DNA from: a virus
Reading direction: 5' to 3' (one strand)
IMG/VR virus record: IMGVR_UViG_3300010970_000172
Coordinates: 1-63,260 of that record
DNA length: 63,260 nt
The position numbers and the translations under genes are program-made. Positions 1-49,121 of the stretch are shown here, in pieces; position 1 is the stretch's first letter, and every line of letters starts with the position of its first letter. Below the pieces are notes generated by a model. It worked only from the letters and a program-made list of their open reading frames with translations, was not told the origin of the DNA and ran no database searches.

Positions 1-55
1 AAATTTAGAACGCTGATACTCTTGTAACTTAAAGTCGCTTGAGTCAGAAAGCATT
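1..55. repeat. 55-bp terminal direct repeat, exact copy of 63206..63260 (assembly overlap of a circular or circularly permuted genome)
   Basis: aaatttagaacgctgatactcttgtaacttaaagtcgcttgagtcagaaagcatt is present at both window ends. Confidence 0.95.
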
Positions 56-3000
56 TTGTTGTGAGAGTCGATAATCTTATCCGTAATAGAATACCCCATC
101 TGTACAAGAGGATTCAATGCGGGAACAATATCCTCGAAAGCTTTTTGGCTTCTTGCGGGAGATAAACCCGTAAACTTACCAAACATTTTAAATGCTTCTA
201 ATACATTTTCTGAGTTAAGCCCTTCGTTACCAACAGAAACTGGCTTAGAGTCGCTATTGTTAAAGATTGGCATTTGTTTGTACAGGTCATAGTTAAACCC
301 GTATTCTAAACCAGCCTTAGCAACAGGAATACTAACAAAAGAACTTAATGCGGGAGTAAATCCTTTTAGCCATCTGTCTGTAACGCCAGCTCTCCATTTT
401 GCTTGTCTTGATGGTTCATCAGATACAAGTTTATAATAAGCCCCTTCTCCAATATGTTGGTAAGTATTTAACCAACCTTTAACAATAGAAGGTACAGAAA
501 TCTTAACATATGGTCTTGTCCCATCCTCATTCTTCCAAGGCATAAAGATTACAATCTTATTCAATAAGTCCATTTGAACATCATCGTTATCGTAATCATC
601 TCCAGCTACCATCATATTGTAAACTGTTAAGCCCGCTAACGCAATACCCGCTTTGCTAATCTTATTAAAGAAATCAACCTTATTATTCTTAATGTATTTC
701 CAAGATATAAATGCCCCTTGCGTAAATACGTTAAAGTAAGGTACATAGCCATCCCACATTTTAGACAACAAGCCTCCACGATGATAATCCATTGCAGCCC
801 TTGCCTTATATGCGGCTTCTTCCTTAATTTGCTCTAATGCCTCTCCAACAGGATTTTGCTTTTTGCTTTGGTAGTGTTCCTCAATGAGTCTGTCACGAAC
901 TGTTCTGTATGAGTTGAGCTTAGATGCAACCTCAGATATGTTTCCAAACATTGAAAGATATTCAACAAATTTACCTCCAAAGTTTTTACCGATACCCTCT
1001 TGACTTTGACTCATCATCAAACCGCCAGATTCAGCATATTCTTGTAATAGCTTTTCTACATAAGGATCAGATTTCCCTGTCTCCATCATAAGAAGTCTTT
1101 TAGATAACTCTAAAGTACCACCCATTGCTTGCTTATATTTGCCAGCTACACCACCTGCGTAAATATCAGTAACATTAACTTGAGACATAACGTCAACAGG
1201 AATATTACTAATAAAGAAGCCTGTATTGATACCTGTCGCAAAGAATCTAACTGCTTGAGAACCAGACCACTTAGTAGTAGTATCGTAGATTTTTCTGCGT
1301 AAAGAACCTTGCTCTCCTTTTAAGTCTTTTAATTCCTCATCTAAGAATTCTCTTGCTAAATCCTCTCTTAATTGATAAGCATACTCTTTGCCATCAACTT
1401 TGTAGACCATTTTACGGAATCCTGTATCTTCTTTCAAATACTTGTATGAGCCATCTGGATTTGTCTTAATTGTACCATCGTTGTAGCGTTCGTATTTCAT
1501 TGGCTTAACCCAACCTTGATTAGTATACTGAGAGTCGTTAGCAAGCCCTTTAACCATTTTATTGGTAGCCACCTTAACCTCAGTCATAATCATTGCTCCT
1601 TGAAGCAATTTACGAGAGTCAGACATTAAATAATCGTCAGCCTTTCCATCTTTGATATTTTTGATATCTTCTGATGACAAAATAGAGCCTCTGAAATGAA
1701 ATTGATTTGAGTTTAAAAGCACATTGCCTGTAACATTACCTTGCTCATCTCTTTCTTCGATTCCAAATGCGTAGTCTAAGAACTTACGAGGAGAGTAGTT
1801 GTAATCTTTAAATAGCTCATATGTCTCTTTAGTGATTAATCCATTCTCCATTTTATACTTAAGTAAGTTACTAAACTCACTAAAATACATATCAGAGCGA
1901 GAGATTAAGTCATTGTACTCTTCTTGACCTAAATCATCTTTCATCTTTTCTAATGTAGCCTCAGCAGACTCCTTGTTAGCCTTAACTTTTCTGTCGCCCC
2001 AAACAATTGCATCTTCTCTTCCGTGTGATGGTCGAGCCTTTTCTTTAATCTTGCTTTTTAAGATGCGAATCTCATCAGCATAATCTTGAGCAATCGATGG
2101 GTCGTTCGCAATTATCTGCTTGATAGCTTCTAATTTAGCTTCAAACTCAGCTCTTTGTTTGTCAAAGTTCTCGTCAACTGCAATAACTCTTCGTAAGAAT
2201 ATAGCAGCATCCAACGCTTTAATTTGCTCTGGAGTCAAGCCTTTGTAAATCTTATTAAATGCTTTTTCAAATTTAAAGTTACCAAATTGAGATGCCCCCG
2301 CTTTGTTAAACATAAGGTACATAGAGCGATTGAATTGCGAATCCTCCATTTCCTTGCGGACATTTACCATTCTATCGAACGACATCTTATATAATCCACG
2401 ATAAAGTTCGTGCATACCTTTGTTTAACTCATCGGTACTGCCTTTCATTAAACCTTTGAAAGCCTTCTTAACTGAAGCACCTTCTCTTCTTTCTTGAGAT
2501 TCTTCTTGAGCAGAAAGTACGTTGTAAGATTTCTTCTGTTGCTTAATGGTTGACTTGTTAATAACTGTGATAGCGTCAGAATCAAACACAATGTAGTTCT
2601 TATGACCATCGTTATTACCTCCGAATGTTGCAAAGGTACTAATTCTGTTTCCATCAATACCAGCAGAACTTAGCAACATAGAAGCCATTTGTTGTGGGTC
2701 AAATTTATTCATTCTGTAGCTACCAGAATTTCTAAAAGATTCTGTTACCCAAATGTAAAAATCACCTCCATTCATTTGAGATAACTCTCTTGTATTAAAA
2801 CCCATTACTATAGCTTCGGCAATATTATATGAGTCTGTAAGTGTTAAGAATTTCTTTGTATCTACTTTCTTGGACTTACCTTCATTTTGCATTTTTTGCC
2901 CTAAAACAGACATTGTATTCTTAATCCCCATAAGAATTTGATTAGCATTAGCAAACCCAATTTGACCATTCCAGTCAAGCCAGAATCCATCTTGTAATCC

Positions 3001-6000
3001 ATTAACTCTGTCGTTGACAGCTACTTTATATAAGTTTCTTTCACCAAAAGCTTGGTAAAGTTTATTTCTGTTTGCTTTTGAAATTTTTGTTCCCAAAAAC
3101 CCTTTATTGTCTTCAAGGAACTGCTTCCATTGAGCAAGAGTTGTATTTGTGCTTTGCAACAATTTGTATGCTTGCTCTCTTAACCCATCTGAATTATTCC
3201 CAAATACAGATGCTGTACTTGGCTTTCCTAATACATCAAGGAGTCCTAATTGGCGAAATTTATTACCTTGATTAGCTTTAGAGTAAGACTTAGCTACATT
3301 TATGTCTGTACTAAAATACATCCCCCATCCAAACGCTTGTCTACCCTCCCCAATTCCAATAGATTTTGATTCAAATCTGTTAAAATTCCAAGGAGAGCCG
3401 TGATAAAGGATTTTCTGTGGCTTGATTTGGAATTGCAATTTATCTGCATCAACAGCCTTTTCTTCAATTTCAGCCGATAGCTTATCTTGGTCTTCTGTTA
3501 ATTCATTTTTTGCGTTGTTGTATTTCTCAAACTCTGATGGTTTAACCATTTGAAGCTTTGATTCGTTAACCAAGTTCGATGTTTTCTCAAACAAGTTGTC
3601 TACATCTTCTTGTGTAGCAGCTTCCATCACCTCACCATTAACAAGTGGGCGATAACCTTCATTTAAAAGCTTCTCGGCTTGAAATTCATTAGCTAACTTA
3701 ATGCCAATGTAATCATTGTTAGATAATGATTCAGATGGGTTAATAAGGAACATATTCTGAGTTTCCTTACTCTTGCTGGAAATTGCTGTATCCGCAAACT
3801 CTCCGCCCTCATAACCCTCATCTTCAAGTCTGCTAAATAACTCACTTGTTAATTCCTCTCCAATGTAGCTATCTTCGAATCTTGGGTCGATTAATTCGTG
3901 AATCATATATTCATCTTCAACTCCTAATTCATTTAGAATACCCCGAATTGTATCTTCTGAAGCAATCTTGCTCTTATCAATATTCATTTCAATAAGATTA
4001 CCCTCGTTACCTTCAGCGTAAGCTAATGCCTCTTCTTTGTCGTTAGCAACAAAGAATATCTGATCCCCACTTAATGTAGTGATGTCTTGCACTTCTCCAC
4101 CGTGGAAAACGGGAGTCATTTGTTTTTGAGCTGTTTTCTGAGCTTTAATATTAGGAATATCCTCAAAAGATATATATTCGCTATTAACCTTTCCGTCTGT
4201 CTTTTCGGCTTCAAATTTTTTCATTGCCAAATTTGCTCTTGCCCATTTGCCAATATCTCCAGATTTACTAAATTCTTCTAAATCAATAACGCCTGCGTAA
4301 TTTTTTACGTCACTTAGGCTCATTACTCCCCTCTTGTACTGTCTGTACATTATTGCTTTTTCATTTGGAGTTAAATCTGCATTATATATAATAGACAAAA
4401 CATTGCCCTCTTCCTCTGATACACCTAATATATCCTGTACTGTTTCTCCTTGAGATGCAATCGTTAAATTCTTCTGAGCCTTAATAGTCTCTCTGCTTGC
4501 AACAAGCTCTTTGCCCATTGTCTCTACAGCCTTGTATGGGGAATTTAAGCGTTTTTTAGCAATCCATTCTTTAATTACAGGGAAATAGTCAGTAACATTT
4601 TGGAACTCATTAAACACGCCAACAGGTTCTCCTTTTACAACATAAGGATAACTTGGATGATCAGGTGCATCAATGAAGAATATTCCCTTCTTTTCATTTA
4701 CTAAAGACTTTCTTGTAGTGTATATTTTAGCTAATCCATCCTCTGTATATTCTGGTGCCGCAATCTTAATTGCCGCAACAATATCGTGGTCATTTGCAGT
4801 ATCTGTCTCTTGCTCTGCTAACCCATTAACAATCTCTTCAAGTGATGTAACCTCGTTAGCTTCTAAAAACTTGTACCATTCTCCAGATGATTTTTTATTC
4901 CAACTATCCTTAAGAACTGTGCTCCAAAACCCACCTCTTTTGCTGAATGATTCTCCAACTAATCCCTTTCTTAATTCTTCAATAGAGCGAACCTCTAAGC
5001 GAGGTGCTTTGATACGAACATTTTTCCCATCCTTGTCTAATACAGGAACAGTTTTATTTTTAAGTTTACCATCCTTATCAGTAACCTTGATTACTTCAGT
5101 CTTGTTAACTGTAATTGTCTTCCCTGAATCTTTCCCATACTTTCCTAAAAAGTGTTTACCTGCTCCTAATTGCTTTCCATTAGAAATAGTATTCAACTTG
5201 TTGTTAAGTTGCGTTAAGAATTCCTCTTCTGTAATCTTCCCATTCATTACGGGAGCAATCAATTCAGCAAGAGCAATCTCATTAAAGTTTACATTACCAC
5301 GACTACCCGTAGCACGAGCCATACGATAAACCAATGTAGCATCTTGGTTAATTGCATTCATAACCATTTCTCTTGCTGCCTTTGGGGTAACAGAAGCCCA
5401 AGCAATACCAGCATCACGAATACCTTGAATGTAAGGATAAAATACCCCACCCATAAGGTTACTAACAACAACACCTGATTTACTATTTCTGTACTCACCA
5501 ACTCTTGTGTGATCGGACATTGTAGCACTATATCGTTTACCAATCATATCAGCTACTTCAATGAACGGATGTGGCATCAATTCGTAGCTACCACGCTGTT
5601 GCTTAATATCAGGCTTATCCGCCTTTTTAGGCTTTCTCTTTGACTTAGGTGGTTCTTCTGTTAATGTACCTGTGATATTCAAGTTTGTTGGCTCGAATAA
5701 ATCGCCCGCAAAATCCTCATTTAACGCATCAACATCTTCTTGCTCTTGAGCCTCTGTTGTAGTAGAAGGGCTATAAGCAAGCATTCTGTTTTGCTCAATC
5801 TGATTCTCAAGGTAAGATAAGTCAGCTTTGTTACCCAATCTAATTGATTCTGATAACGACTCAAAGAACTTAGCCAACTCTTCGATGCTTGCGGTCTCAG
5901 AGAATACGCTATTATTAATTAAATTTTGTAATCCTTTTAATTTTAGCTTACCCGCCCATTTAGATAAGAACTCACGAATAGAAAGCATTACCTTGTGCAT

Positions 6001-8874
6001 CGTTCCTCTTTGAATCTTTGCATCACGAACTACCATCATACCGCCAAGCTCCATTAAGAACTCTTCTGCCATATCAATCTTCTCTTGGTCAGTAGCATTC
6101 TTAGCGTCCTTAGCGTACATATCAGCAAACTTCTGTAGCTTATCTGTTACGTTAGTAGGAAGAACCATTATAATGCGTTTCTGCATCTGAATGAATGCCT
6201 CTGGAAACTCTACTGCAATCTGAGCGAACGCTTCGTGGAAGATTTCGTGAGACACAGTATTGTCCTGCATAGTCATTCGGTTAACATATATGTCATCCCC
6301 AACTTTTAATGCATTAGAATCCTTGGCTTTATTAACCGATTCTTTCATCGAATAACCTTTCTCCATTAAAGCTTTAGCTACCTCTGTCCTATTATCAAAA
6401 AGAATAATACGACCATTTGGATTCATTTGCTTTAAAGCTTTGTTCTGATTATTAAGACGTGCTCTTTGCTCCTTTGTTAACTTGTTAAGTATTGGATTAG
6501 CTTCAGCTACCTCTACGTTCTCATCGACAACATAGGCTCTATCTGGAGCAAACTTAACATTCTTCTTGGCTTGGTTAGCCATTAACATTGGAATCAATAC
6601 AGGTGAATTAGTAGTAAATTCTTTGCCCGTTCTTGTATCACGAACTCTGATTTGTTCTACCTCGTCATCCTCGTTCATTTTTGTATCAACTACCTCTAAG
6701 TCACCTTTAATTTTAATGGCGTTATTTACTTGAGTAGATTCTTTTGTCTCAACATTAACTCTAAATTTAGGCTTAGGTTGTAATGAAATTTGACCCTTCT
6801 CATTTACTTGTGCAGTAACTTGGAATGGGTTTCCTTTCTCATCGTATGCTGTGAAGATTTCGCCTTTAAAGCGATTATTTCTAACACGTTGAGCTCTTTG
6901 TAAAGCACGAGCTCCAGTCGTTGCGATACGACCCTCTGCTTGAGATTCTGTTAAACGAGTTCCGTTCTCTGTAGCATTAATATATGTTTCAAGATTACGA
7001 ATCTGACCATTAACCTTACCTAAGGCTTGGTCTTTTTCCAAAGGAGTAAGCTCTGAGTTATTGTAAATAACTTGCTCAATCTCATTTAGCTGGTCAGCCG
7101 CTTTATTTAATTCAGAAACCTCTACATCCTTACCTTGCTCCATCGCCTTCATTGTGTCAGCGTGGTCTTGTTGGAATACTGTATATGCGTTATTGTTAGC
7201 TAAGAACTCCTCAGCTTTAACTTTAGCTTCTTCTTGTCTTAATTTTAATGTGTCGCTATGTCTATCTCTTTCCTTGTTCCATTGCTCCTCCATTAATCCA
7301 TTAACAAAAGTTACCTTCTCTTGAATCTTTTCATCAATGCCAGCTTGAACAGCTTCGTCTTTAGCGTTTCTCTTATCTCGCTGCAATGCTTCCATTTTAT
7401 GAAGAGCATCGATAGCTTCAGAACGCTTCCCTACATCTTCGATTGAAGCGATAGCTGTATAATCATCGTAAGCACCACGTTCTTGGAACTTCATTATATC
7501 GTCAATCTTTTGATTTGCGATTTGACGAGTTTCATCAGATAATGTAGTATCGTTGGCTACTTCTTTTAAACGCTCAATAGATTTCTTTTGTGTCTCATCA
7601 AGTTTATTAGATGTAGCTAATACAAGTGTACCAGACATTGAACCACCAGATAATGAGCCAATTATGAATGCATCAGCAGCGTTTTTCGCAAGAGTGCCAA
7701 GTTCATCCCAAGTTACTTTTTGATTATCAGATTGAGCTTTATCTACAATGAAATTTCCTACTGTAGATAAAATCTCTTCTAATCCTTCTTCTCCAGCACC
7801 TCGGAATATTCTTTTAGCGGCAGGTAGCATACCTCTTACAAGTTGTCTTTTTACTTGTTCTGCACCTTCTTCTGCTACAGCAGTAACAATAGGAGACCCT
7901 CCAATTAATGCTTGCCCCGTTCTTCTTAGTTCCTTTAAGTTAGTTTGGAATAATGATTCAGTAGTTCCTTCAATTAAACCACTCCAAATTGATTTAACAA
8001 TTTCGCTACCTGAAAGACTTTGGTCTTCAGCGTAAGCTTTGTTAATCTCTGCCCCCGTACCCAAAACTGCTGAACCAGTAAATATCTCTGCAGTTCCTCC
8101 CGATGAGGCTAACGCAAGTGACATAGGAATTGTTCTTGCCGCACTTAATGTAGCAATTTTTGCCGCATCAGCATAATTTCCTTCAGAAATAAAATCAATT
8201 ACACTTTTATTCTTGTCGATATCTGACTTTTTAATACCAGAATCTTCTAATACTTGCTTAAATGATAAGTCTCCAATCTCTTGTAAATATCCTGCAGCCT
8301 CATAAATTTGCCCTACAACACTTGGTAGTGGAGCGTTTTCTGATGTCTTAGATGTTTGGAATCCAAAGTCTTCTTTTTTATCTATACTTGAATCGTACCG
8401 CTGTTTAAGATAATCCTGCTTTTCCTTCCAAGACATCTTCGATTGCTTATTTAGTTCATCAGAATCTAATGCAAGCATATCTGAAACCTTGCGACCTACT
8501 GACTGCAAATCTGAACCTACTAAAGCTCCCGCAATCTTAGCGTCAGCAAACCAGTTTCTTGGATTAGCAATATCTAATGCAAGAGCAGCAGAACCTAATC
8601 CACCACTAATTACATCGTATACACCAGAAAAGGTAGCATCACTACCGTGATTTAATCCTCTGAAAAATTTGGTAAACAAATTACCCGTATCCGCCCCTTC
8701 ATTCTTAGAAGACCCAGCCATAGAACTTATTCCCCCAGACGATTCCGTATCGTTTTTTTTTTGAAGCGTATCGTATTTTGTTAAATCGGCACGTTCGTAT
8801 CCTGAAGATGATGGTTGCTCGGAACTAACATTGTACTTAGATAAATCTGCTTTTTCAAATTGTTGCTTAGACAT
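1..8874 (-). CDS. Giant virion-associated polyvalent-type protein, first 2,958 codons. The ORF continues across the junction into 62681..63205, for 3,132 aa in total.
   Basis: My manual reverse-strand translation from the ATG at 8874..8872 (MSKQQFEKADLSKYN...) met no stop down to base 1. Its last 18 codons, MLSDSSDFKLQEYQRSKF, equal the start of track ORF 62681..63259. It contains HEIFH (6235..6249) and H-G-G/S blocks. Only short antisense or out-of-frame ORFs are listed in the track here. Confidence 0.85.
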   Translation of the reverse strand, partial: MSKQQFEKADLSKYNVSSEQPSSSGYERADLTKYDTLQKKNDTESSGGISSMAGSSKNEGADTGNLFTKFFRGLNHGSDATFSGVYDVISGGLGSAALALDIANPRNWFADAKIAGALVGSDLQSVGRKVSDMLALDSDELNKQSKMSWKEKQDYLKQRYDSSIDKKEDFGFQTSKTSENAPLPSVVGQIYEAAGYLQEIGDLSFKQVLEDSGIKKSDIDKNKSVIDFISEGNYADAAKIATLSAARTIPMSLALASSGGTAEIFTGSAVLGTGAEINKAYAEDQSLSGSEIVKSIWSGLIEGTTESLFQTNLKELRRTGQALIGGSPIVTAVAEEGAEQVKRQLVRGMLPAAKRIFRGAGEEGLEEILSTVGNFIVDKAQSDNQKVTWDELGTLAKNAADAFIIGSLSGGSMSGTLVLATSNKLDETQKKSIERLKEVANDTTLSDETRQIANQKIDDIMKFQERGAYDDYTAIASIEDVGKRSEAIDALHKMEALQRDKRNAKDEAVQAGIDEKIQEKVTFVNGLMEEQWNKERDRHSDTLKLRQEEAKVKAEEFLANNNAYTVFQQDHADTMKAMEQGKDVEVSELNKAADQLNEIEQVIYNNSELTPLEKDQALGKVNGQIRNLETYINATENGTRLTESQAEGRIATTGARALQRAQRVRNNRFKGEIFTAYDEKGNPFQVTAQVNEKGQISLQPKPKFRVNVETKESTQVNNAIKIKGDLEVVDTKMNEDDEVEQIRVRDTRTGKEFTTNSPVLIPMLMANQAKKNVKFAPDRAYVVDENVEVAEANPILNKLTKEQRARLNNQNKALKQMNPNGRIILFDNRTEVAKALMEKGYSMKESVNKAKDSNALKVGDDIYVNRMTMQDNTVSHEIFHEAFAQIAVEFPEAFIQMQKRIIMVLPTNVTDKLQKFADMYAKDAKNATDQEKIDMAEEFLMELGGMMVVRDAKIQRGTMHKVMLSIREFLSKWAGKLKLKGLQNLINNSVFSETASIEELAKFFESLSESIRLGNKADLSYLENQIEQNRMLAYSPSTTTEAQEQEDVDALNEDFAGDLFEPTNLNITGTLTEEPPKSKRKPKKADKPDIKQQRGSYELMPHPFIEVADMIGKRYSATMSDHTRVGEYRNSKSGVVVSNLMGGVFYPYIQGIRDAGIAWASVTPKAAREMVMNAINQDATLVYRMARATGSRGNVNFNEIALAELIAPVMNGKITEEEFLTQLNNKLNTISNGKQLGAGKHFLGKYGKDSGKTITVNKTEVIKVTDKDGKLKNKTVPVLDKDGKNVRIKAPRLEVRSIEELRKGLVGESFSKRGGFWSTVLKDSWNKKSSGEWYKFLEANEVTSLEEIVNGLAEQETDTANDHDIVAAIKIAAPEYTEDGLAKIYTTRKSLVNEKKGIFFIDAPDHPSYPYVVKGEPVGVFNEFQNVTDYFPVIKEWIAKKRLNSPYKAVETMGKELVASRETIKAQKNLTIASQGETVQDILGVSEEEGNVLSIIYNADLTPNEKAIMYRQYKRGVMSLSDVKNYAGVIDLEEFSKSGDIGKWARANLAMKKFEAEKTDGKVNSEYISFEDIPNIKAQKTAQKQMTPVFHGGEVQDITTLSGDQIFFVANDKEEALAYAEGNEGNLIEMNIDKSKIASEDTIRGILNELGVEDEYMIHELIDPRFEDSYIGEELTSELFSRLEDEGYEGGEFADTAISSKSKETQNMFLINPSESLSNNDYIGIKLANEFQAEKLLNEGYRPLVNGEVMEAATQEDVDNLFEKTSNLVNESKLQMVKPSEFEKYNNAKNELTEDQDKLSAEIEEKAVDADKLQFQIKPQKILYHGSPWNFNRFESKSIGIGEGRQAFGWGMYFSTDINVAKSYSKANQGNKFRQLGLLDVLGKPSTASVFGNNSDGLREQAYKLLQSTNTTLAQWKQFLEDNKGFLGTKISKANRNKLYQAFGERNLYKVAVNDRVNGLQDGFWLDWNGQIGFANANQILMGIKNTMSVLGQKMQNEGKSKKVDTKKFLTLTDSYNIAEAIVMGFNTRELSQMNGGDFYIWVTESFRNSGSYRMNKFDPQQMASMLLSSAGIDGNRISTFATFGGNNDGHKNYIVFDSDAITVINKSTIKQQKKSYNVLSAQEESQERREGASVKKAFKGLMKGSTDELNKGMHELYRGLYKMSFDRMVNVRKEMEDSQFNRSMYLMFNKAGASQFGNFKFEKAFNKIYKGLTPEQIKALDAAIFLRRVIAVDENFDKQRAEFEAKLEAIKQIIANDPSIAQDYADEIRILKSKIKEKARPSHGREDAIVWGDRKVKANKESAEATLEKMKDDLGQEEYNDLISRSDMYFSEFSNLLKYKMENGLITKETYELFKDYNYSPRKFLDYAFGIEERDEQGNVTGNVLLNSNQFHFRGSILSSEDIKNIKDGKADDYLMSDSRKLLQGAMIMTEVKVATNKMVKGLANDSQYTNQGWVKPMKYERYNDGTIKTNPDGSYKYLKEDTGFRKMVYKVDGKEYAYQLREDLAREFLDEELKDLKGEQGSLRRKIYDTTTKWSGSQAVRFFATGINTGFFISNIPVDVMSQVNVTDIYAGGVAGKYKQAMGGTLELSKRLLMMETGKSDPYVEKLLQEYAESGGLMMSQSQEGIGKNFGGKFVEYLSMFGNISEVASKLNSYRTVRDRLIEEHYQSKKQNPVGEALEQIKEEAAYKARAAMDYHRGGLLSKMWDGYVPYFNVFTQGAFISWKYIKNNKVDFFNKISKAGIALAGLTVYNMMVAGDDYDNDDVQMDLLNKIVIFMPWKNEDGTRPYVKISVPSIVKGWLNTYQHIGEGAYYKLVSDEPSRQAKWRAGVTDRWLKGFTPALSSFVSIPVAKAGLEYGFNYDLYKQMPIFNNSDSKPVSVGNEGLNSENVLEAFKMFGKFTGLSPARSQKAFEDIVPALNPLVQMGYSITDKIIDSHNKMLSDSSDFKLQEYQRSKF

Positions 8875-8914: not shown

Positions 8915-10468
8915 TTAATTAACCCACTTGACGTGTTTAACTTTATTATCTGCTGCCACTTGCTTCCATTTATCTCCTTCCTTGAAAGAGCTGTCTAAGT
9001 ATATTGTACTTGTAGCTCTATCAATATCCCCTGTAGTTGGGGCTAAAGTTTTAATTTCCATTGGAGTTCTATTGTAAGCATCCAAAGCTTTATTTACATA
9101 AATTTTTTGTTTAGCTGGGATTACAGCTTTAGCTCCATTAAATGAAGATTTATTGTATGAATTTACAGGGATTTCAACTGGTTCAAATCCTGACAATGTA
9201 CTTTGATTTGCTTCTAAATAGCCCATTGACCGTGGAGCTTTGTATCCAGAATAATATTCTTTACCGTTTTTCCATACAATACTGTTTGCAATAAAATTAA
9301 CAGGTTTCCCTGATGCATCCTTGCCTATCATTGGAATTCTCTTTCCGATAAATGCGGTTTTAGTGTTAGATGATGCATTAATATCTACTACATCGCCACC
9401 AAAATCATTCATCTGCTGCATTTCTTGGTAGTTCTTCGCTGTAGTAGACTTTGACGCAGCAATTGCGGCTCTATCTTTGTCATTCTGTAATTGTATTTCC
9501 GTATCAATATTTCCAGCTTTAGCCTTAGATACTTTAGCGTTGCTTTCAATTGTAGATAACTCATTCTTATCCTTAAGAAGAACTTCTTTACCAGCTCTAT
9601 TATTGTTCTCAACGTATCTTTGTAGTTGATTTGCTGCTAATTGGCTATCCGACAACATTGATGCTTCTGGTCCCATCTGTGCCCTTATTGCGTCAAGAGC
9701 AGGCTTTCCTTGAGTTTTAAATGCTTCAATAGCTTGCTGTATTTTAGATGTCATTATTGGAGACCCATCTGGCTTTCTCATTGGCTGTCCATCAGGTCCA
9801 ATCATAGGAGTGGCACCTGTTTCAACAAATTTACCCGTAGCCTTATCATATTGATATCCTGAAACTTGCATTCCACCAACTTGATATCTGTTGCCATCTT
9901 TTTCTACCGTTTCTGTGAATTCGGTAGCAGGTAAGAGTTGTTTAAATAAATCTCCTGAAACTTTAGTAGTATTCACATTTTTAGTGTAAGCGGCTTGCAT
10001 TTGTCTTCCCATATCTGCTGCAGATAAATTGTTTGGGTTTAACAAGATGCCTCTTAAGTCACTCAATGTAGTGGTTAGGCTTGTTAAATCATCCTTAGAA
10101 GCAAGAGATGTTTGTGTCCAATCCTTTAACATTTGAGTACCAGCCTCAAGAGCTGATTTTCTGTTTTTGATTTGTGTAACTTCGCTACGAATGTTACCTA
10201 ATGCTGAATAGTCTAACTTACCATTTTTAATAATGTCTTTTGCAGCCTTATTCATCAAGGCATTTGTTTTGCCCGTAATTTCTTCTTGTCCGTACTCCCC
10301 TAACTTATCAGTTAATGCATCGATATTCTGAAAAGTCTTTTCAGCAGTAACATAATCGTTCTGCTTTTGAGCGATTATTTGAGCAAATGCATTTCCAAGT
10401 CCAGCTTGAAATTGAGCAAACCCTTTATTAATCGTTTCGGTGGGATCGTATAAAAATGATTCTGCCAT
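8915..10468 (-). CDS. Hypothetical virion protein, 517 aa, mostly helical (putative internal/ejection module)
   Basis: Track ORF. It lies immediately upstream of the giant gene in the same operon. No recognisable motif. Confidence 0.5.
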   Translation of the reverse strand: MAESFLYDPTETINKGFAQFQAGLGNAFAQIIAQKQNDYVTAEKTFQNIDALTDKLGEYGQEEITGKTNALMNKAAKDIIKNGKLDYSALGNIRSEVTQIKNRKSALEAGTQMLKDWTQTSLASKDDLTSLTTTLSDLRGILLNPNNLSAADMGRQMQAAYTKNVNTTKVSGDLFKQLLPATEFTETVEKDGNRYQVGGMQVSGYQYDKATGKFVETGATPMIGPDGQPMRKPDGSPIMTSKIQQAIEAFKTQGKPALDAIRAQMGPEASMLSDSQLAANQLQRYVENNNRAGKEVLLKDKNELSTIESNAKVSKAKAGNIDTEIQLQNDKDRAAIAASKSTTAKNYQEMQQMNDFGGDVVDINASSNTKTAFIGKRIPMIGKDASGKPVNFIANSIVWKNGKEYYSGYKAPRSMGYLEANQSTLSGFEPVEIPVNSYNKSSFNGAKAVIPAKQKIYVNKALDAYNRTPMEIKTLAPTTGDIDRATSTIYLDSSFKEGDKWKQVAADNKVKHVKWVN

Positions 10469-10480
10469 TATTTTGTAGTG

Positions 10481-11377
10481 TTATTCCGTAGGATATTGTA
10501 TATTGTTGATTTCAGACATATCCAAAGGTGGAGTCCAATAAGTAGATTTTGTTGCCGCTGGGTTGTTTTGCAAGAATTGCGTACCTAAATCCAGATTCTT
10601 ATTTCCATACATTTGCTGTAATTGAGCCATCTTCATATTCTGCATACCCATAGCAAGTAATCCGCTACTCATTCCTCCTAAAGTATTACCTGCTCCCATA
10701 TACATTGCATCGTTAGCTTTGTTAACAATTCCCGCAGCAGATAAGTCTAACTGCATCCCTTGTGTTCCAAGATTCATCTTACCCATAAGGTTTGATTGCT
10801 GAACACCAAGTATACCTTGCTGTCTTGACGCTTGACTTGCATATTGTCTGTATTTTTCCATTGCTCCACCAGCAGCTGATTGCCCAAGTGCCGCTAATTG
10901 ACTTTGTCTTAACTGAGCGATGTTTGCCAAAGCGTATTGTTGTGAGTTAGCAATTGTACTTGCCTTTTGATTTCCAGCCAACTGTTGCCCGCTTAATAAT
11001 TGAGCAGCCATATCAGCCTTAGATAAACCTAATTTACCAGATGCTTGAACCATATTTGCAAACCCTTGGTCTGCTTGGTCTAACTGATATTGGTCTAAAG
11101 CGTTTCTTGTTGAGCCTTGAGCTTGTGCAAGGTTCTGAGATGCCTTATCAGTCATAGCATTGTACCCACTCATATCAGCTTGATATGTAGGCACTCCCAT
11201 TGCTGTAGCTTCAAGCCCTTTAGCTCCTGTATCGAATAAGGCATTTTGGTTAACATTAAATAGGTTAACCTTCTGTTGTTGTTTTACTGCATTTGATGCA
11301 GCACTATTAGCTCCAAGGACAGACATTAATCCTTGTCCTGCTGTTCCAATTAGCGATGCAATAGTTAACGGATCCAT
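10481..11377 (-). CDS. Gln/Ala/Gly/Met-rich low-complexity protein (putative internal virion protein)
   Basis: Track ORF, 298 aa. Composition and position are between a large structural protein and the ejection-like proteins. Confidence 0.45.
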   Translation of the reverse strand: MDPLTIASLIGTAGQGLMSVLGANSAASNAVKQQQKVNLFNVNQNALFDTGAKGLEATAMGVPTYQADMSGYNAMTDKASQNLAQAQGSTRNALDQYQLDQADQGFANMVQASGKLGLSKADMAAQLLSGQQLAGNQKASTIANSQQYALANIAQLRQSQLAALGQSAAGGAMEKYRQYASQASRQQGILGVQQSNLMGKMNLGTQGMQLDLSAAGIVNKANDAMYMGAGNTLGGMSSGLLAMGMQNMKMAQLQQMYGNKNLDLGTQFLQNNPAATKSTYWTPPLDMSEINNIQYPTE

Positions 11378-11387
11378 ATTTTATTAT

Positions 11388-14300
11388 TTATGAGTGACCA
11401 GATACTGGTGCAATTTCAACATCTATAGAATTAATACGCATATTCTGCGTTTTATCCTTTAAAGTTACAACAAATTTATTAAGATAGCCAACAATGTAGT
11501 CACCTTCTATTATAGCATTTGTCATAAGCAAGCCTGCCCTATAAGATAATTCATTGCGTAGGATATACGCATACAAGCGATTATCCTCCATTAGGAAATT
11601 TGATTCAACTATTGATGTCGATTGCCCATTCTCGTTTGTTATGTTAATTGACAATAAATTTGATTTAACGCTATTGGATTGTCCCCAATCAATAACATTC
11701 ATATCGTGCGTTATAGCCACATTTAATGGCATAACAGGAACTCGACTATTTAGCATTAATGATATTGAACCATCATAAGATGCATTAAGTAAATACCCGT
11801 AATCATTAGTGGTAGTATTGTCGACTGGCTTGTACATAACCCCACTCTTAAATATCACCATCTTATCACCGTAGCTTTCCGCAAAATCTGTACGGAAATT
11901 ATAATTTTCTGCTATCCAACGCTGTAATACATCTGACCAACCAGCGGAAACCGTTTCGCTTCCAAACCCAATAAAACACATATTGTAGAATGGGTCATAT
12001 GCGAAAGTAGCCTTACCTGATTTACCTAAGAAATACGACCGCATATAGATATCACTCGGAATAACAAGTCCATCAGTAGTATATTTAACTACTTTTTTGT
12101 TGAAATCGTCCCACCACCAAATCATACCTTTGTAGTTCATCACAGATTCTTTGTGTAACATACCAAGGTTGTTCCCAAAGTTTCTAATTGTACCAATCAT
12201 ATTGGCTGTCAATGACCTAATAGCAGAGTTATTTCCTTGCGATAACTCTTGCTCGCCAAGCATAATGTATGCCGATTCTTTTTGACACAACACAAGTAGC
12301 ATAGAACCATTACCTTGTAGGCGAGAGGCTCTCTGCAAAGATGTAATAGCTCCATTCTCAATAGCTACATCGTTGCTATCAGCTGCGTAGAAACTATTTA
12401 CATTATTAATACTTGTCCCTGCTACATAATTGCCACCGTAACGAATTGTATTTGTTCTACGAGGGTTAGATAGCGTATTAGTAATAATTGATGGCTTACC
12501 CGCAGATGTATACCATTGAGGGTAAGATGTAGCGTTAGAAGCCGAACGAATCAGAACCTTTGTAGTTGTAGTTGAAACTTTAGCATTGTTATTGTAAGTA
12601 GTTGTAACTTTTGGGGTAGTTCTATCTCCATTAATAGTAAACTTAACCGCTGCTCCAGTTGCTGGTTTTTCTATTGTAAATACAGCATTGTCGCAGTCAC
12701 CCAATAGTACAGGAGAGACCACTATTTCAATGTAGAATTTATCATTAGGATTTATGTCTTTTACATCATTAGGCATAGTCAATGTTTGGCTTGCCGTTAG
12801 CGAAGATGTTGTTGGTGTTCCGCTAATTCCGCTTCCAACAACCCCACCCAAAGATTCAGTTGACTTAACAAATTTCTCTACCTTCCCATAAATATTCTTA
12901 ACATTGTCGTATGGTATTCTGTATAGTTGTGCACTAATACTTAAGCTTAAGCCTCCAGATGGGGATGAAACAGAATCGTAAGTTAACGTGTGAGTAAGCT
13001 TAAAGCTGTAATCAATAACAATTCTATTTATGTCAGCGTCTTGTTCTTGTTGCTCATAATATCCAGTTAACTTAAATGCTGGTCCCGATGATGCAGCGTT
13101 CCCATCTTTATCTAAGATTACTGCTCCATCTTGGTTTGTCCCAAAAGATGTCCACTTAGGATTTAACTTAAGTTCAATCGTTTTTGGTACACTATTTTTA
13201 TTCGCATTGTAATCTGCTGTAGCGGTGAAATTCACATTTTCCGCAGTATCTGCCATAGAGCAATAAACCTCAGTAACCCTGTCTTCTACTACATAATCTT
13301 TTGATGGAACTGGTTTTTCAATATTATATAAGAAAGGGGCATTTGAGTATGTAGGCAAATCTAATGTAGTAAATACTGTATCCCCAATCAGCTTGGATGT
13401 AGTAGCACTATTCAATGTACCGTTACCTTGAAATGTCTTAACTAATGGAGATGCAAGTGGAGTTGTTGTTGACCCCCACCCTGTAATGTCAACTAAATTA
13501 CCATATTCGTAGAATACAAGCGACTCATCTTCTTGAATTTGCTTAGGAGAATATAACTCAAAAAACAATAATTTTGGGTCAGGTGTCTCAAGGTTTGTCA
13601 TTGCACCCCCATTGTATAGGCAGTACACAAGATTGTTATCTTGATGATGCACCTTCATATCAAGCAATCCATTTGGAGATGGAGTGTTGATTGTAATTCT
13701 ATCCCCCTCTTCAAATGTGTATACTCTACCAGCACGATACATTCCCATTAAGTCAACAACGAAATACTGAATGTCTTTCAACTGATCAGTAGTTACCGAC
13801 TGGCTTACACCCGAAACAACTGTAGTTTCCTTTGTTGTAGGGTTTGTTTCTGTACGATTAATCTGAAAGTATATGTTACTTGCAAAACCCTCGTAGAAAT
13901 AAGATTTAGATGTATTCTTGGTATATACTAATTGTGCATACTTTGCCCAACTTGGTCTTAGCCATCCCGCCTTGAATTCAACAGAAACAGTAGGTACTAA
14001 AGGATAGGCAAATTTACCCGTTGTAAACTTTACAAAGTTTTTCTCTACACCTCTTGTCTTTAGTGCCGAATCGTAAAAAGCAATACCCGCAGCATAAACA
14101 GAGTTATTTGCAAATGGCTTTACATATTCTGCACCTGCATATGTTGTCTCAGAGCTTGTTGGAGATGTTAATCCCACGCCACTAATATATGTATTCGCAG
14201 CACCTCCCGTTGGCAATGAGTATCCAGTTGAATCGGCTGTAATTGCAAAATTCAAGTTAGCCGCTACAATATCGTAGTCGTCTTTAACGTCAGCTAAAAA

Positions 14301-15158
14301 TATTCTGTTCTTTGCAATCTCAATATGTTTTGCGTTTACAGGAACCGCATCATAAGGGCTACCTGTAGTCACAACATCTAAGCTTTCGTAAGTTTGACCC
14401 GACCAAGTAAATGTAGGAGTACCTGTTGCATCTTGTGTGTCAATTCTTCTCCAAATACCATTGTTTCCTACACGAACATACACTTCAACTGAATCAGCAA
14501 AGTATGGCTTATTTGTAAAGTCGTAAGATAAGGTATAAGAAACTGTCCCCTTTTCACCTTTGTACATTTGACTGTAGTTGCCAAGTACAGAGTATTCGTT
14601 AGAAGAGTAATGGTATCTGCTTGCAAACTGATAATCGTTACTTTCAAGTAAATCTACTCCAGCTCCAATATTCTTCTTAAAACTAACAACATTATTTGGA
14701 GTATCTTTTTGAAGCTTTAAATCTAAAATAGTTCTGGTCCCTGACAAAGCAGTAGCAGTAGGGCAAATAAGAACCGTTCCTTCTTCAGCGTAGTTCCAAA
14801 CTACATTAGAGCCAATAACCTTAATGTCGGGGGTAAATGTTGTTGTAACTAAATGCGTATAAGTTACAAGTGCAACAGATGAATCTAAAGTGGTAGGTAC
14901 TTTATAAATTGTAGCCGTAGTCCCGTTGTCAACAAGAACAAATATTGTTCCATCAACATCTTGAGTTGTCTCCTTAATATTAGAAAACGTAACCCCTGTT
15001 GTACGGATTGATTCAAGCAAACGGATTGCTCCAGCACCCCCTGATTTACCAGAATCGAATACTATATTAGATGCTGATACATAATCGCCTTGAGGCAAGT
15101 TATTTGGGTCAACATCTTTATTTAAACCCCCTGTTGCGGTGAGACTTACTCTGCTCAT
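11388..15158 (-). CDS. Large virion structural protein, 1,256 aa (putative tail or nozzle component)
   Basis: Track ORF. Called on size and position in the late operon. No enzymatic motif seen. Confidence 0.5.
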   Translation of the reverse strand: MSRVSLTATGGLNKDVDPNNLPQGDYVSASNIVFDSGKSGGAGAIRLLESIRTTGVTFSNIKETTQDVDGTIFVLVDNGTTATIYKVPTTLDSSVALVTYTHLVTTTFTPDIKVIGSNVVWNYAEEGTVLICPTATALSGTRTILDLKLQKDTPNNVVSFKKNIGAGVDLLESNDYQFASRYHYSSNEYSVLGNYSQMYKGEKGTVSYTLSYDFTNKPYFADSVEVYVRVGNNGIWRRIDTQDATGTPTFTWSGQTYESLDVVTTGSPYDAVPVNAKHIEIAKNRIFLADVKDDYDIVAANLNFAITADSTGYSLPTGGAANTYISGVGLTSPTSSETTYAGAEYVKPFANNSVYAAGIAFYDSALKTRGVEKNFVKFTTGKFAYPLVPTVSVEFKAGWLRPSWAKYAQLVYTKNTSKSYFYEGFASNIYFQINRTETNPTTKETTVVSGVSQSVTTDQLKDIQYFVVDLMGMYRAGRVYTFEEGDRITINTPSPNGLLDMKVHHQDNNLVYCLYNGGAMTNLETPDPKLLFFELYSPKQIQEDESLVFYEYGNLVDITGWGSTTTPLASPLVKTFQGNGTLNSATTSKLIGDTVFTTLDLPTYSNAPFLYNIEKPVPSKDYVVEDRVTEVYCSMADTAENVNFTATADYNANKNSVPKTIELKLNPKWTSFGTNQDGAVILDKDGNAASSGPAFKLTGYYEQQEQDADINRIVIDYSFKLTHTLTYDSVSSPSGGLSLSISAQLYRIPYDNVKNIYGKVEKFVKSTESLGGVVGSGISGTPTTSSLTASQTLTMPNDVKDINPNDKFYIEIVVSPVLLGDCDNAVFTIEKPATGAAVKFTINGDRTTPKVTTTYNNNAKVSTTTTKVLIRSASNATSYPQWYTSAGKPSIITNTLSNPRRTNTIRYGGNYVAGTSINNVNSFYAADSNDVAIENGAITSLQRASRLQGNGSMLLVLCQKESAYIMLGEQELSQGNNSAIRSLTANMIGTIRNFGNNLGMLHKESVMNYKGMIWWWDDFNKKVVKYTTDGLVIPSDIYMRSYFLGKSGKATFAYDPFYNMCFIGFGSETVSAGWSDVLQRWIAENYNFRTDFAESYGDKMVIFKSGVMYKPVDNTTTNDYGYLLNASYDGSISLMLNSRVPVMPLNVAITHDMNVIDWGQSNSVKSNLLSINITNENGQSTSIVESNFLMEDNRLYAYILRNELSYRAGLLMTNAIIEGDYIVGYLNKFVVTLKDKTQNMRINSIDVEIAPVSGHS

Positions 15159-15182
15159 TTCTTAAATATTAAAATGACAATA

Positions 15183-15941
15183 TTAGTTCTTGATACTTCC
15201 GTGAATTCCTTTTCTTATTAAGCCAATAATTTCAGCATAATCCATTGAATTCATTCTTGCTCTAAATACTCTGCGAGCATTTTCAAAGTCTTGCTTTGCT
15301 AACTGAAACAAACCAATTCTTGCTCCATCAGCAGCAGAAGCCATCATTTTAATGTATTTAGTAATTACATCAATAGCGTATGGCGTAACAAGGTTAGCTG
15401 TAGACTTCGAAACAGAAGATGTGATATAGGTCAATGTAACTTCAGTAAGAGACATTGTATTACAAAATACAAGTTCGGAATTAGTAGTATCAATATCGTA
15501 TGTTAGCAAAGGTTTGCGTTGCTTTCCATAATATCGACCAACTAACTCTCCTCTTGTGTTTAAATTATTGGCACCAGAAATTAAGTTATAGTTAAATTCT
15601 GAGTCGTAGTTAATGTTACTATCTGTAGGGTAAGGAATCTTATTGCCCGCCTCGTCACGATTGTAGTTCTTGTTTAAAGTTCTATCCCGCTCCATTGGAA
15701 GCAATCGCTCTCCGTGCTTTGCAGAAACATCTACTACGTCAATAAAATCTGTTGGCAATATAGCTCTTTGATAAGATGTCGTACTTAATACAACACTCTT
15801 AACATTCCCCATATCGTAGTCCATCGAAAGCTCATCTAAGATACGAAGAGCGTGATGTAAGTAGCGTGTATAATAATGTAATGGTAAACCGTTATCTAAT
15901 AACGCATCCCTAACGATTATATTTATAGATTTAGTCTTCAT
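15183..15941 (-). CDS. Hypothetical structural protein, 252 aa
   Basis: Track ORF, tightly packed in the late operon. Confidence 0.5.
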   Translation of the reverse strand: MKTKSINIIVRDALLDNGLPLHYYTRYLHHALRILDELSMDYDMGNVKSVVLSTTSYQRAILPTDFIDVVDVSAKHGERLLPMERDRTLNKNYNRDEAGNKIPYPTDSNINYDSEFNYNLISGANNLNTRGELVGRYYGKQRKPLLTYDIDTTNSELVFCNTMSLTEVTLTYITSSVSKSTANLVTPYAIDVITKYIKMMASAADGARIGLFQLAKQDFENARRVFRARMNSMDYAEIIGLIRKGIHGSIKN

Positions 15942-15943
15942 CT

Positions 15944-16597
15944 TTATTGTTGTTGTTGAGTTGCCATTTCAGCTTGAGCGACACGTCCATTACTAATAAC
16001 AGCAAGCACTTCATTAATTACGGCGGTTTCAACATCTGGAGAAATTGGCAATAAGTCAGTATCTGTTAATTGAGAGAAATCAGCTACTAATAAATTCACA
16101 AGAACACTTGAGATGCTACCATTTGCTGACAATGTAATATCCTTTGTAAAGTAAACCTTTGTTCCTTGTAAGTAATATCCAACTTGCCCTTCCAAATAAC
16201 TAACATTTGTTCCGCTTGCAATTGAGCCAAAAACAAGCACATCTTGAGCGGGAATTGGAATATAAGGTGTAATTGCTGCATTAGTAGCACTAATACTCCA
16301 AATCCCTAAATCCATTGGTAAGGATAGAGGGATTGCAGGCAATGTGATATATGACCTGCTATTAGTAGAGTCCGATGTAACTGTTCTCGTATACTGAATG
16401 ATGTTACACTTTGGTACATCAATGCTGCCCGCTTTAAATGACTCAGCTACTTGTAATTTAAGTACCTTGTTAAGAGATTGCTCTACAAGTAACTTAACCT
16501 CACGCAAGTCAATTACATCCGAAGGATTATCTTTATCGAGAAACCTTGCGTAGATTCGCTGGGCTTGTTCTGCTATCTTATATTTTGTAGTTGCCAT
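15944..16597 (-). CDS. Hypothetical structural protein, 217 aa
   Basis: Track ORF. Its start and stop abut the neighbouring genes. Confidence 0.5.
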   Translation of the reverse strand: MATTKYKIAEQAQRIYARFLDKDNPSDVIDLREVKLLVEQSLNKVLKLQVAESFKAGSIDVPKCNIIQYTRTVTSDSTNSRSYITLPAIPLSLPMDLGIWSISATNAAITPYIPIPAQDVLVFGSIASGTNVSYLEGQVGYYLQGTKVYFTKDITLSANGSISSVLVNLLVADFSQLTDTDLLPISPDVETAVINEVLAVISNGRVAQAEMATQQQQ

Positions 16598-17274
16598 TAT
16601 CGTTCGTCATTTTTTTGGTTAACATCCATCATGCCCTCTATATTAGCCACATCGCCATCTTTCAATGTGATACCCAAGTACATTAATGCACGAGTCACAA
16701 TATCAGAATAGTATCTGTCAGCAACATCGATATCTACATTCCCCGATGAAGCAGCTGATATGTTACCGTTAACTACTACTGCATTATAAAATGCTGTAGC
16801 TGGCTTTCTCATATAAACAAATGTAAAAACGTAATTACCCGATGTAGGTATCGGTGCAAATTCAATTTTCGCAGTTCCCGTAGTGTCAAGATATATAGTC
16901 GCAGCAGGGTAAGCACGATCAGGAGCAAGAATCGAACTATTTTTAATTTCAAGAAATTCATCCCACGAGTATAAAGTACCCTCAATTTGGACTGTGTTTT
17001 CATTGGTGTGATATATAGTTAGACCCTCTACATAATCGGTAGGTAAGTCTTGCACACTTGTAGTTGGCGATACCGTAAAGGTTGCTCTCTTAACAAGTAA
17101 GTGGTCGTATTCGAACTTTCCAGTTTTGTGGTATTTATAGATAACGGCACTCATCCAATCAGCAACACCTCTGTTGATTGCTCTATCTATATCCTTTGGG
17201 GAGACAAAACCAGCTTTATTCTTTTTAATGATGCTGCGAATGAAATCGTGAGCATCAACTATAGAAATTGCCAT
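16597..17274 (-). CDS. Hypothetical structural protein, 225 aa
   Basis: Track ORF. Preceded by a TAACTTTG -7-like box (17298..17305, minus strand). Confidence 0.5.
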   Translation of the reverse strand: MAISIVDAHDFIRSIIKKNKAGFVSPKDIDRAINRGVADWMSAVIYKYHKTGKFEYDHLLVKRATFTVSPTTSVQDLPTDYVEGLTIYHTNENTVQIEGTLYSWDEFLEIKNSSILAPDRAYPAATIYLDTTGTAKIEFAPIPTSGNYVFTFVYMRKPATAFYNAVVVNGNISAASSGNVDIDVADRYYSDIVTRALMYLGITLKDGDVANIEGMMDVNQKNDER

Positions 17275-39460: not shown

Positions 39461-39571
39461 GGTGATACTATAGTAGCACCCCCCTGCTACCCCGCAATCA
39501 CCCCCCCTGCTACTCGGCAAGCATCTACAAATGTTTTAGTGCTACTATAGTTGCATCTACAAATGTTTTAG
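39461..39571. repeat. Iteron cluster A. It holds the near-palindrome GGTGATACTATAGTAGCACC, C-run/TGCTAC boxes, and two tandem 32-bp units TGCTAC-N7-GCATCTACAAATGTTTTAG.
   Basis: 39461..39480 is the reverse complement of 49472..49491. TGCTACTCGGCAAGCA (39508..39523) is repeated at 49452..49467. The 32-bp units are at 39508..39539 and 39540..39571. Confidence 0.8.
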
Positions 39572-48926: not shown

Positions 48927-49121
48927 ATGGATTTAGAAACTACAGCATTTAATGTCATTTGTAAAGTAAAGATTGCACATAGCAAGATTGAATTGGCACA
49001 ATGGGAGTCGGTAATTAAGTATGCCAAACCAGAGATGTCAGCATTTGATATGATCCTTAATAAGATTGAGGAACAGGTTGATATTATAAGAGATTTAGAA
49101 GCCAAATTAAAAGATAATTAA
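48927..49121 (+). CDS. Hypothetical protein, 64 aa from the MDLETT start
   Basis: Track ORF 48870..49121, trimmed because its N-terminus is the terminator hairpin. Confidence 0.45.
   Translation: MDLETTAFNVICKVKIAHSKIELAQWESVIKYAKPEMSAFDMILNKIEEQVDIIRDLEAKLKDN

Follow-up and report, generated by a model that had tools for sequence, protein, structure and literature searches.

The stretch of DNA analysed here, called the window throughout, is the whole of the IMG/VR virus record IMGVR_UViG_3300010970_000172 (positions 1 to 63,260; 63,260 nucleotides), and our subject is a gene of 3,132 codons, the giant gene, which runs across the two ends of the record. It had been proposed in an earlier note, made from the letters of the window, as a single open reading frame (ORF) crossing the junction and absent from the list of predicted ORFs. 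The window begins and ends with the same 55 bases (positions 1-55 = 63206-63260, exact); this terminal duplicate is the k-mer overlap left by the assembler on a circular contig, and it has to be trimmed before ORFs or repeats crossing the junction are analysed. The unique circle after trimming has 63,205 bp and 37% G+C, and the giant ORF lies on it in two parts:

1..8874, minus strand: codons 1-2958 of the giant ORF, with the start ATG at 8874..8872, from stop-free translation
62681..63205, minus strand: codons 2959-3132 of the giant ORF and its stop TAA at 62683..62681

From the ATG, the frame was free of stops to base 1 (2,958 codons), and on the trimmed circle it went on from position 63205 to the TAA, for a total of 3,132 amino acids (aa); with its stop, the ORF spans 9,399 nt, or 14.9% of the genome. 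Joining the ends without trimming produced a spurious frameshift and a stop after 2,961 codons, caused by the 55-nt duplicate, so the earlier note was right to subtract the 18 duplicated codons. Its account of why the ORF list had missed the gene, namely that the frame has no stop inside this end of the window, also holds, and on the trimmed circle neither an in-frame stop nor a frameshift appeared. The ATG stands immediately 3' of an in-frame TAA TAG, the predicted N-terminus MSKQQ agrees with the consensus MGKQQ of the homologues, and the gene downstream begins 3 nt past the giant stop. Given the frequency of stop trinucleotides on this strand (0.058), 3,132 open codons would occur by chance with a probability of ~1e-82, while the remaining five frames of the region hold 124-405 stops each, with a longest open run of 222 codons. 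That run contains an antisense ORF of 218 aa (4673-5329, plus strand), which, because the giant ORF is conserved, is most likely a non-coding shadow ORF.

Twelve homologues were found in a search of 5.8 billion proteins, and all of them are giants (2,519-3,430 aa). Nine of the 12 are 57-87% identical to the window protein, 2,519-3,025 aa long, encoded on independent contigs of 46-65 kb from different sources, and built of the same modules in the same order. On two of these relative contigs (L003 and L004), in which the linearisation point does not cut the giant gene, gene callers gave uninterrupted products of 3,005 aa and 2,749 aa. These findings establish the hidden gene as real. From a BLAST map against the homologues, together with alignments, its product was divided into the following modules:

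8323..8874, minus strand: leader, aa 1-184, Ser/Gly-rich and poorly conserved (from composition and the start of the next domain in relatives)
7225..8322, minus strand: N-domain, aa ~185-550, conserved and Gly/Ala-rich (alignment invariants)
6493..7224, minus strand: linker, aa 551-794, K/E-rich and charged, probably helical, then a beta-rich stretch (composition and BLAST map)
5785..6492, minus strand: putative zincin-like (MPTase-like) domain, aa ~795-1030, here called the HExxH domain (invariant motifs)
4435..5577, minus strand: cassette A, aa ~1100-1480 (BLAST map and alignment)
4150..4428, minus strand: cassette I, aa ~1483-1575, ~90 aa (BLAST map and alignments)
3490..4149, minus strand: cassette B, aa ~1576-1795, with FHGG…IFFVAND…LIEMNID (BLAST map and alignment)
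2635..3432, minus strand: predicted ADP-ribosyltransferase (ART) of the ART-PolyVal type, aa ~1815-2080, with a large internal insert (Pfam and motifs)
1..2556, minus strand: core of the C-module, aa 2107-2958, mainly alpha-helical; the module continues to aa 3132 in 62684..63205
130..594, minus strand: equivalent of LPD38 (PF18857), aa ~2761-2915, mapped from the relatives P0018, P0023 and P0025 through the hidden Markov model (HMM) of the C-module

The N-domain is one of the two conserved end modules. Its invariant positions include G272, D284, G299, G303, E306, R347, E363, G364, E367, G373, F403, G406 and G411, and no Pfam model matched it, either in the giant or in fragments that hold the N-domain alone. 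An exhaustive search with the HMM of the N-terminal module in 1.84 billion representative proteins returned 196 proteins, most of them of 1,500-3,900 aa, in which the N-domain and the HExxH domain matched independently of each other: the N-domain always lay 150-300 residues from the N-terminus and the HExxH domain could be anywhere. In dozens of giants the N-domain was matched by itself (profile positions 5-370), always near the N-terminus, and it was detected in Maribacter phage Panino, in gp18 of Flavobacterium phage vB_FspP_elemoF_6-3D (elemoF), and in gp120 of Cellulophaga phage phi46:3 and gp101 of phi38:1. A search of PDB sequences with the profile of the N-terminal module gave chance-level matches only. 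The linker that follows is conserved in close relatives only.

The earlier note had drawn attention to Gly/Ala/Ser-rich hydrophobic stretches in the first ~420 residues and had taken them as what is expected of an ejection protein. One such peptide, TIPMSLALASSGGTAEIFTGSAVLGTGAEI, is located at aa 248-277, within the N-domain, and Gly, Ala and Ser make up 37-38% of aa 1-100 and of aa 201-300, as described. The hydrophobicity is only weak: along the whole giant, the mean Kyte-Doolittle hydropathy over 19 residues peaks at 1.44, for which reason the stretches are not classical transmembrane helices and transmembrane helices in the giant were rejected. They are Gly-rich, amphipathic, weakly hydrophobic segments and, because they are not of transmembrane grade, the argument from composition is a weak one.

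In the HExxH domain, the HEIFH motif occupies aa 876-880 (window 6235..6249) and a pair of glutamates aa 937-938, and H876, E877, H880, E937 and E938 were invariant in all 13 family sequences. When 20 diverse copies of the domain were compared, only the H, E and H of the motif and one E were invariant. The domain behaves as a mobile unit, found at variable positions in other giants, among them elemoF gp18 (E 1.6e-35). In the AlphaFold (AF2) model, the HExxH motif and the EE pair are each placed in a helix, with short strands before them, at a local predicted local distance difference test score (pLDDT) of 60-74; an HExxH in one predicted helix and a downstream Glu in a later one is the arrangement of zincins. 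Foldseek with the model of aa 770-1830 against the PDB gave nothing below E 0.2, and a search of PDB sequences with the profile of the HExxH domain returned chance-level matches only.

Between the HExxH domain and the C-module lies an array of cassettes (aa ~1100-2100) that varies among relatives. Cassette A carries the motifs SD, GG, WAS.T, GLAE and HPSYP.VV..EPV…PVIK and exists in two diverged variants; at 69% identity, it also heads another protein, P0027, in which LPD23 and a putative metallopeptidase are found as well. A profile search with the middle region found a single new protein. Cassette I is present in the window giant and in the homologue P0009 only and absent from P0001-P0008, and cassette B is absent in P0009. 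No family was matched by cassettes A, I or B. Reading cassette B as a second ART was considered and rejected, as the likeness was one of motifs by eye and hhalign gave E 0.15 over 26 columns.

The ART cassette holds all three family motifs, namely [YF]HG[ST] (YHGS at 1824), the aromatic-[ST] strand (GMYFST at 1851) and the C-terminal F[DE]P.Q…GN.G.F (KFDPQQ…GNRISTF at 2057), and Pfam ART-PolyVal (PF18760) matched aa 1821-1871 with E 1.4e-5 and 26.3 bits, the gathering score being 31.2. ART-PolyVal was matched in eight of the 13 family members, with a best E of 1.7e-13, and P0010 matched it over the full profile with 52 bits. The cassette is precisely missing in P0007-P0009.

The C-module (aa ~2107-3132) is the best-conserved part of the protein and is kept in all homologues, in phi46:3 and in Panino. 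A profile search with it retrieved 14 further proteins, several of them with Pfam LPD38; among 5.8e9 sequences it reached, with E 7e-4, P0026, in which LPD38 scores 148.7 bits. The AF2 model of aa 2101-2958 is mostly α-helical and has medium confidence, with a pLDDT of 67.8 and a predicted template modelling score (pTM) of 0.62. Neither Foldseek with this model against the PDB (nothing below E 0.2) nor a PDB profile search (chance level) found a counterpart; against the predicted viral structures of BFVD there were 58 matches with E<=1e-3, covering 830-930 columns with template modelling (TM) scores of 0.45-0.61. Many are named 'large polyvalent protein associated domain (38)', at E about 1e-12 and TM about 0.5, and others are the C-terminal parts of proteins that take their names (RelA/SpoT, lytic transglycosylase, methylase) from other domains fused to them. 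Proteins of Escherichia phage PTXU04 and gp121 of phi46:3 are also among the matches. Profile and predicted fold together appear to link the C-module to LPD38 polyvalent proteins, and the whole ~850-1,000-aa module, beyond the 189 residues of LPD38, is a conserved fold, which is a modestly new observation.

A census was made of 176 collected relatives scored with HMMs of the N-domain, the HExxH domain, the ART and the C-module. Both end modules were present in 49 of them, always with the N-domain first and the C-module last, and the gap between the two was 22-1,871 aa (median 1,010). The median distance from the N-terminus to the start of the N-domain was 190 residues, and that from the end of the C-module to the C-terminus 174 residues. 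Among the payload domains of the relatives are ART-PolyVal, LPD1, LPD5, a methyltransferase and GNAT, and LPD38 also occurs in the family. Conserved end modules around a swappable middle look like a chassis that carries a payload.

Polyvalent proteins were defined as a class by Iyer, Burroughs, Anand, de Souza & Aravind 2017 (PMC5512222). They are found in phages and conjugative elements, combine several domains with the zincin-like MPTase as their hub, adjoin virion genes and are predicted to reach the host along with the DNA; they occur outside virion contexts too, and LPD38 is confined to those of phage type (PMC5512222). The window giant combines in one polypeptide an HExxH domain, a predicted ART-PolyVal, a C-module with the LPD38-equivalent region and at least three further cassettes. 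Its cassettes recombine, as seen in the ART missing from P0007-P0009, cassette I shared between the window and P0009, and cassette A reused in P0027, and the gene is encoded among late (virion) genes, as in L003, L004, phi38:1, phi46:3 and elemoF. It is very likely, therefore, that the giant is a phage-type polyvalent protein. Proteins of the type described by Iyer and colleagues, for which P1 DdrB/DarB and PTXU04 gp25 are examples, join a zincin-like peptidase, an ART and LPDs in one giant polypeptide and lie beside virion genes, whereas the HExxH domain and N-domain of the window protein match no current Pfam model. Giant genes of such type were already annotated in cultured relatives; what is modestly new is the explicit rule (N-domain, variable payload, LPD38 C-module), together with four conserved pieces that have no family model, namely the N-domain and cassettes A, I and B.

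The placement of the giant gene after three large ORFs, on which the earlier note had built its case, was confirmed in the window, where the gene is the last large one of an operon for the adaptor and internal proteins:

8915..17274, minus strand: upstream syntenic virion genes, from the adaptor to the 517-aa ORF
16597..17274, minus strand: SU10-type adaptor (Pfam SU10_adaptor, E 2e-11)
within 8915..17274, minus strand: 217-aa and 252-aa ORFs, between the adaptor and the 1,256-aa ORF
11388..15158, minus strand: 1,256-aa ORF
within 8915..17274, minus strand: 298-aa ORF, between the 1,256-aa and 517-aa ORFs
8915..10468, minus strand: 517-aa ORF

In L003 and L004 the order is an SU10-type adaptor (225 aa), then proteins of 218, 252, ~1,255, ~306-335 and ~512-530 aa, then the giant, followed downstream by a 46-48-aa gene and a DUF5856 protein, a neighbourhood that matches that of the window. 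The upstream gene order is also found in phi38:1, phi46:3 and elemoF, matches to the PHROG 'virion structural protein' occur among the genes upstream of the giant, and the 1,256-aa protein shows weak collinearity with gp097 of phi38:1. PHROGs and NCBIfam gave no matches for the giant itself or for the three upstream proteins. The two genes after the giant in the window (62537-62677 and 62044-62508, minus strand) are the 46-aa gene and the DUF5856 protein (E 4e-21); they are kept at the same place in L003, L004 and L005 and may be functionally linked to the giant. The portal, large terminase, capsid protein and GroES-like gene of the window are ~30% identical to those of Flavobacterium phages of the elemo group, Cellulophaga phages and Maribacter phage Panino, and by these similarities the genome is that of a podophage of the Flavobacteriia-phage assemblage.

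Several cultured phages of this assemblage have a related gene at the equivalent position. In elemoF, the order is GroES, TerL, portal … proteins of ~1,490, 135, 205 and 449 aa and, last, gp18 (3,694 aa, 'structural protein'), which takes a larger share of its genome than the window giant does and has the N-domain (E 1e-9) besides the HExxH domain. It differs from the window protein in its other payloads, in its annotation as DUF3293 and in a C-module undetected by HMM, and tblastn with the window protein finds nothing there. In phi46:3 and Panino, the N-domain and a complete C-module (E 1e-50 to 1e-112) are encoded at the same operon position, in products that are much shorter than the window giant and in which the HExxH domain and the ART were undetected: gp120 and gp121 of phi46:3 (1,439 + 626 aa; a 'virion structural protein' and a hypothetical protein) and CDS0069 of Panino (1,829 aa, labelled tRNA methyltransferase). 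In phi38:1, gp101 (1,691 aa, 'structural protein') has a weak N-domain only (E 7e-6), and its C-module was undetected by BLAST, hhalign and HMM, with short motif echoes only. The C-module of phi46:3 (L001, 11614-18133) is split, gp120 holding HMM positions 13-307 and the next ORF, in another frame, positions 335-793; the annotated gp121 starts later than the frame that holds the latter. This may reflect a frameshift or a sequencing error, or the giant gene may be truly divided in that isolate.

Outside this group, one of the closest known systems is gp47 of the Stx podophage phi24B (vb_24B_48, 2,807-2,811 aa), likewise a giant from the last gene after tail and internal-protein genes, with a metallopeptidase whose HExxH…(A)GEFL motif is of the window's type, and with LPDs, LPD38 standing at the end. 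The similarity is marginal (C-module HMM, E 0.004; HExxH domain, 0.04; N-domain undetected), and gp47 differs from the window protein in having LPD5 and LPD1, no ART, and E. coli as host. By proteomics, purified virions contain abundant amounts of the 2,811-aa product (with LPD5, LPD1, LPD38 and a metallopeptidase), which cannot be seen in the cryo-electron microscopy map, and it was proposed to be a capsid-packaged ejection protein (bioRxiv 10.64898/2026.04.10.717836). In PTXU04, the putative polyvalent protein of 2,198 aa (gp25) is essential for plating (PMC11879866), and a protein of this phage named 'large polyvalent protein associated domain' is among those whose predicted fold matches the C-module of the window. 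No literature specific to the giant gene was found among publications on Elemovirus and Pachyviridae. A third point of comparison is gp50 of phage N4 (3,500 aa), the virion RNA polymerase (vRNAP), a giant that is packaged in the capsid and injected and that has a central enzymatic payload and an MPTase-type HExxH. Its terminal regions serve injection and encapsidation, and its middle is the enzymatic payload. The payload of the window protein is no RNA polymerase, and the two proteins share no significant sequence or fold similarity.

By analogy with these relatives, it is reasonably probable that the giant is packaged in the capsid and injected with the DNA, as the earlier note had suggested for a podovirus-like particle; that claim fits all our findings, and its support comes from the relatives. 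The description as a plain ejection protein, by contrast, proved too narrow, having overlooked the zincin-like HExxH domain, the ART, the exchangeable cassettes and the LPD38 C-module. The reading that we favour as a whole, and consider likely, is that of an injected multi-enzyme polyvalent virion protein. The giant gene would close the series of large genes in the late (virion) operon of a Flavobacteriia-type podophage, and its product would be packed inside the capsid alongside the 1,256-, 298- and 517-aa proteins and pass out by way of the tail when the phage infects a cell. The N-domain and the LPD38 C-module would be the chassis for packaging and ejection, by analogy with N4 vRNAP, and the HExxH domain would most likely cut the giant into working pieces or attack host proteins or the cell wall. 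The ART would use NAD+ to modify targets in the host during the first minutes after infection, and together with cassettes A, I and B it would act on them ahead of any phage gene expression. Packaging, ejection, proteolytic processing and the activity and targets of the ART are what we infer from the modules, the gene order and the known systems.

Some of our own results weigh against this reading. The ART match of the giant is below the gathering score and covers 46 of 140 profile positions (positions 7-52), both because an insert of ~180 aa splits the domain, and the acidic catalytic position of the ART is not strictly conserved in the family. The giant itself had no direct LPD38 match at E<=1. 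The HExxH domain had no match in Pfam (including MPTase-PolyVal), in a profile search of the PDB or by Foldseek, which for this region used a low-confidence model; the MPTase of N4 vRNAP (HELVH) aligned in register, though not significantly (hhalign probability 8%), so that aa ~795-1030 may be called zincin-like from the motif and a model of medium confidence. The AF2 model of aa 770-1830 was poor overall (pLDDT 49.5), and cassettes A, I and B were left uninterpreted. The 'structural protein' labels were used as deposited in GenBank, and the evidence for packaging and injection of the giant and its close homologues is indirect.

The alternative that survives best, although we consider it unlikely, is that the giant is a purely structural ejection or conduit protein, forming a trans-envelope channel or 'tail extension', with enzyme motifs that are vestigial or serve only to breach the wall. 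The most conserved parts of the protein are indeed the non-enzymatic N-domain and the helical C-module, Gly-rich, weakly hydrophobic helices are present, and minimal family members, with a gap of 22 aa, are nearly without payload; the authors of the phi24B study proposed that their protein serves as a conduit and that its peptidase acts on peptidoglycan (bioRxiv 10.64898/2026.04.10.717836). However, the HExxH…E motif is invariant across very divergent sequences and the ART motifs are kept wherever the ART cassette exists, both of which argue for active enzymes. The payloads of the relatives (RelA/SpoT, methylase, GNAT, ART) are of cytoplasmic effector types and not of a kind that breaches the wall, and no segment attains the hydrophobicity of a transmembrane helix.

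That the giant is an intracellular late factor for anti-defence or host takeover, never packaged and merely sitting in the late operon, is improbable in our view. It would be in line with the occurrence of polyvalent proteins outside virion contexts and with the indirect basis, noted above, on which packaging is assigned. Against it stand the strict synteny with virion genes in at least four phage lineages, positional equivalents annotated as structural (though only some of them share the modules of the giant), the restriction of LPD38 to phage-type polyvalent proteins near virion genes (PMC5512222), and the presence of phi24B gp47 in purified virions (bioRxiv 10.64898/2026.04.10.717836). Moreover, an effector that is produced late could be of use in time only if it were brought into the next cell.

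Very improbable is that the giant serves as an injected virion RNA polymerase for early transcription, of the kind of N4 gp50 or the gp66 of crAss-like phages. Its size, the place of its gene at the end of the virion operon and its probable packaging recall N4 vRNAP. The string DDYDNDD at aa 2759-2765 superficially resembles a DxDxD metal-binding site; it follows a hydrophobic helix, and distant homologues have DDYEKD or LDDEED there in place of DxDxD, and a polymerase reading based on it was rejected on that ground. No RNA polymerase family appeared in the Pfam, PHROGs and NCBIfam searches, the profile of the full-length giant against PDB sequences gave chance-level matches only, with no RNA polymerase at E<=10, and the C-module HMM did not match N4 vRNAP. 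Foldseek against the PDB found no RNA polymerase for aa 770-1830 or aa 2101-2958, aa 1-770 being covered by profile searches alone, without a model. Finally, a chimeric assembly or a fusion of genes through sequencing errors, suggested by the metagenomic-style assembly with its k-mer overlap and by the two frames of the homologous region in phi46:3, has a negligible chance of being correct in view of the nine close homologues with the same module order on independent contigs, the uninterrupted products of the gene callers and the chance probability of the open frame.

A broader proposal, which we put forward as tentative and rather doubtful, is that the N-domain and the LPD38 C-module might be a general delivery chassis by which inserts of 22 to ~1,900 residues are packaged into the capsids of podophages and injected; cassettes A, I and B would then be undescribed early anti-defence or host-takeover modules and the N-domain an undescribed domain for packaging or ejection. 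The census provides a testable rule for the loading of enzymes into capsids and their injection, with fixed N- and C-modules and a swappable middle of 22-1,871 aa, and new early effectors, as well as a signal for packaging or ejection, may be sought among the three cassettes and the N-domain. With a gene of 15% of a phage genome recovered after being hidden by linear ORF calling, the giant joins the polyvalent class, for which experimental data are just emerging (the proteomics of phi24B gp47 and the essentiality of PTXU04 gp25). For annotation pipelines, the case speaks for trimming terminal k-mer overlaps and rotating circular contigs before ORFs are called.

Some further features of the genome were observed. 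No tRNA or transfer-messenger RNA (tmRNA) genes were found across the whole window, unlike Panino, in which a block of at least 15 tRNAs lies directly downstream of the homologous gene. The GroES-like co-chaperonin gene (39568-40215, minus strand) is just upstream of the terminase genes, with a 187-aa ORF between GroES and TerL, and the GroES-TerL-portal arrangement is common to phi38:1 and elemoF. Two late proteins of 660 aa and 929 aa (22318-24300 and 24639-27428, minus strand) have PHROG head-decoration/tail-fibre-like and peptidase/tail-fibre domains and are probably receptor-binding or tailspike proteins with an N-terminal region of the chaperone-peptidase type. Two adjoining arrays of tandem repeats, one of 22 bp x 2.9 and one of 12 bp x 3.4, sit at 49424-49534 inside the ORF 49121..49813 (plus strand), a lambda-O/DnaD-like replication initiator (PHROG 270, E 1.7e-35) directly followed by a DnaB-like helicase gene, and they resemble iterons of an origin placed within the initiator gene.

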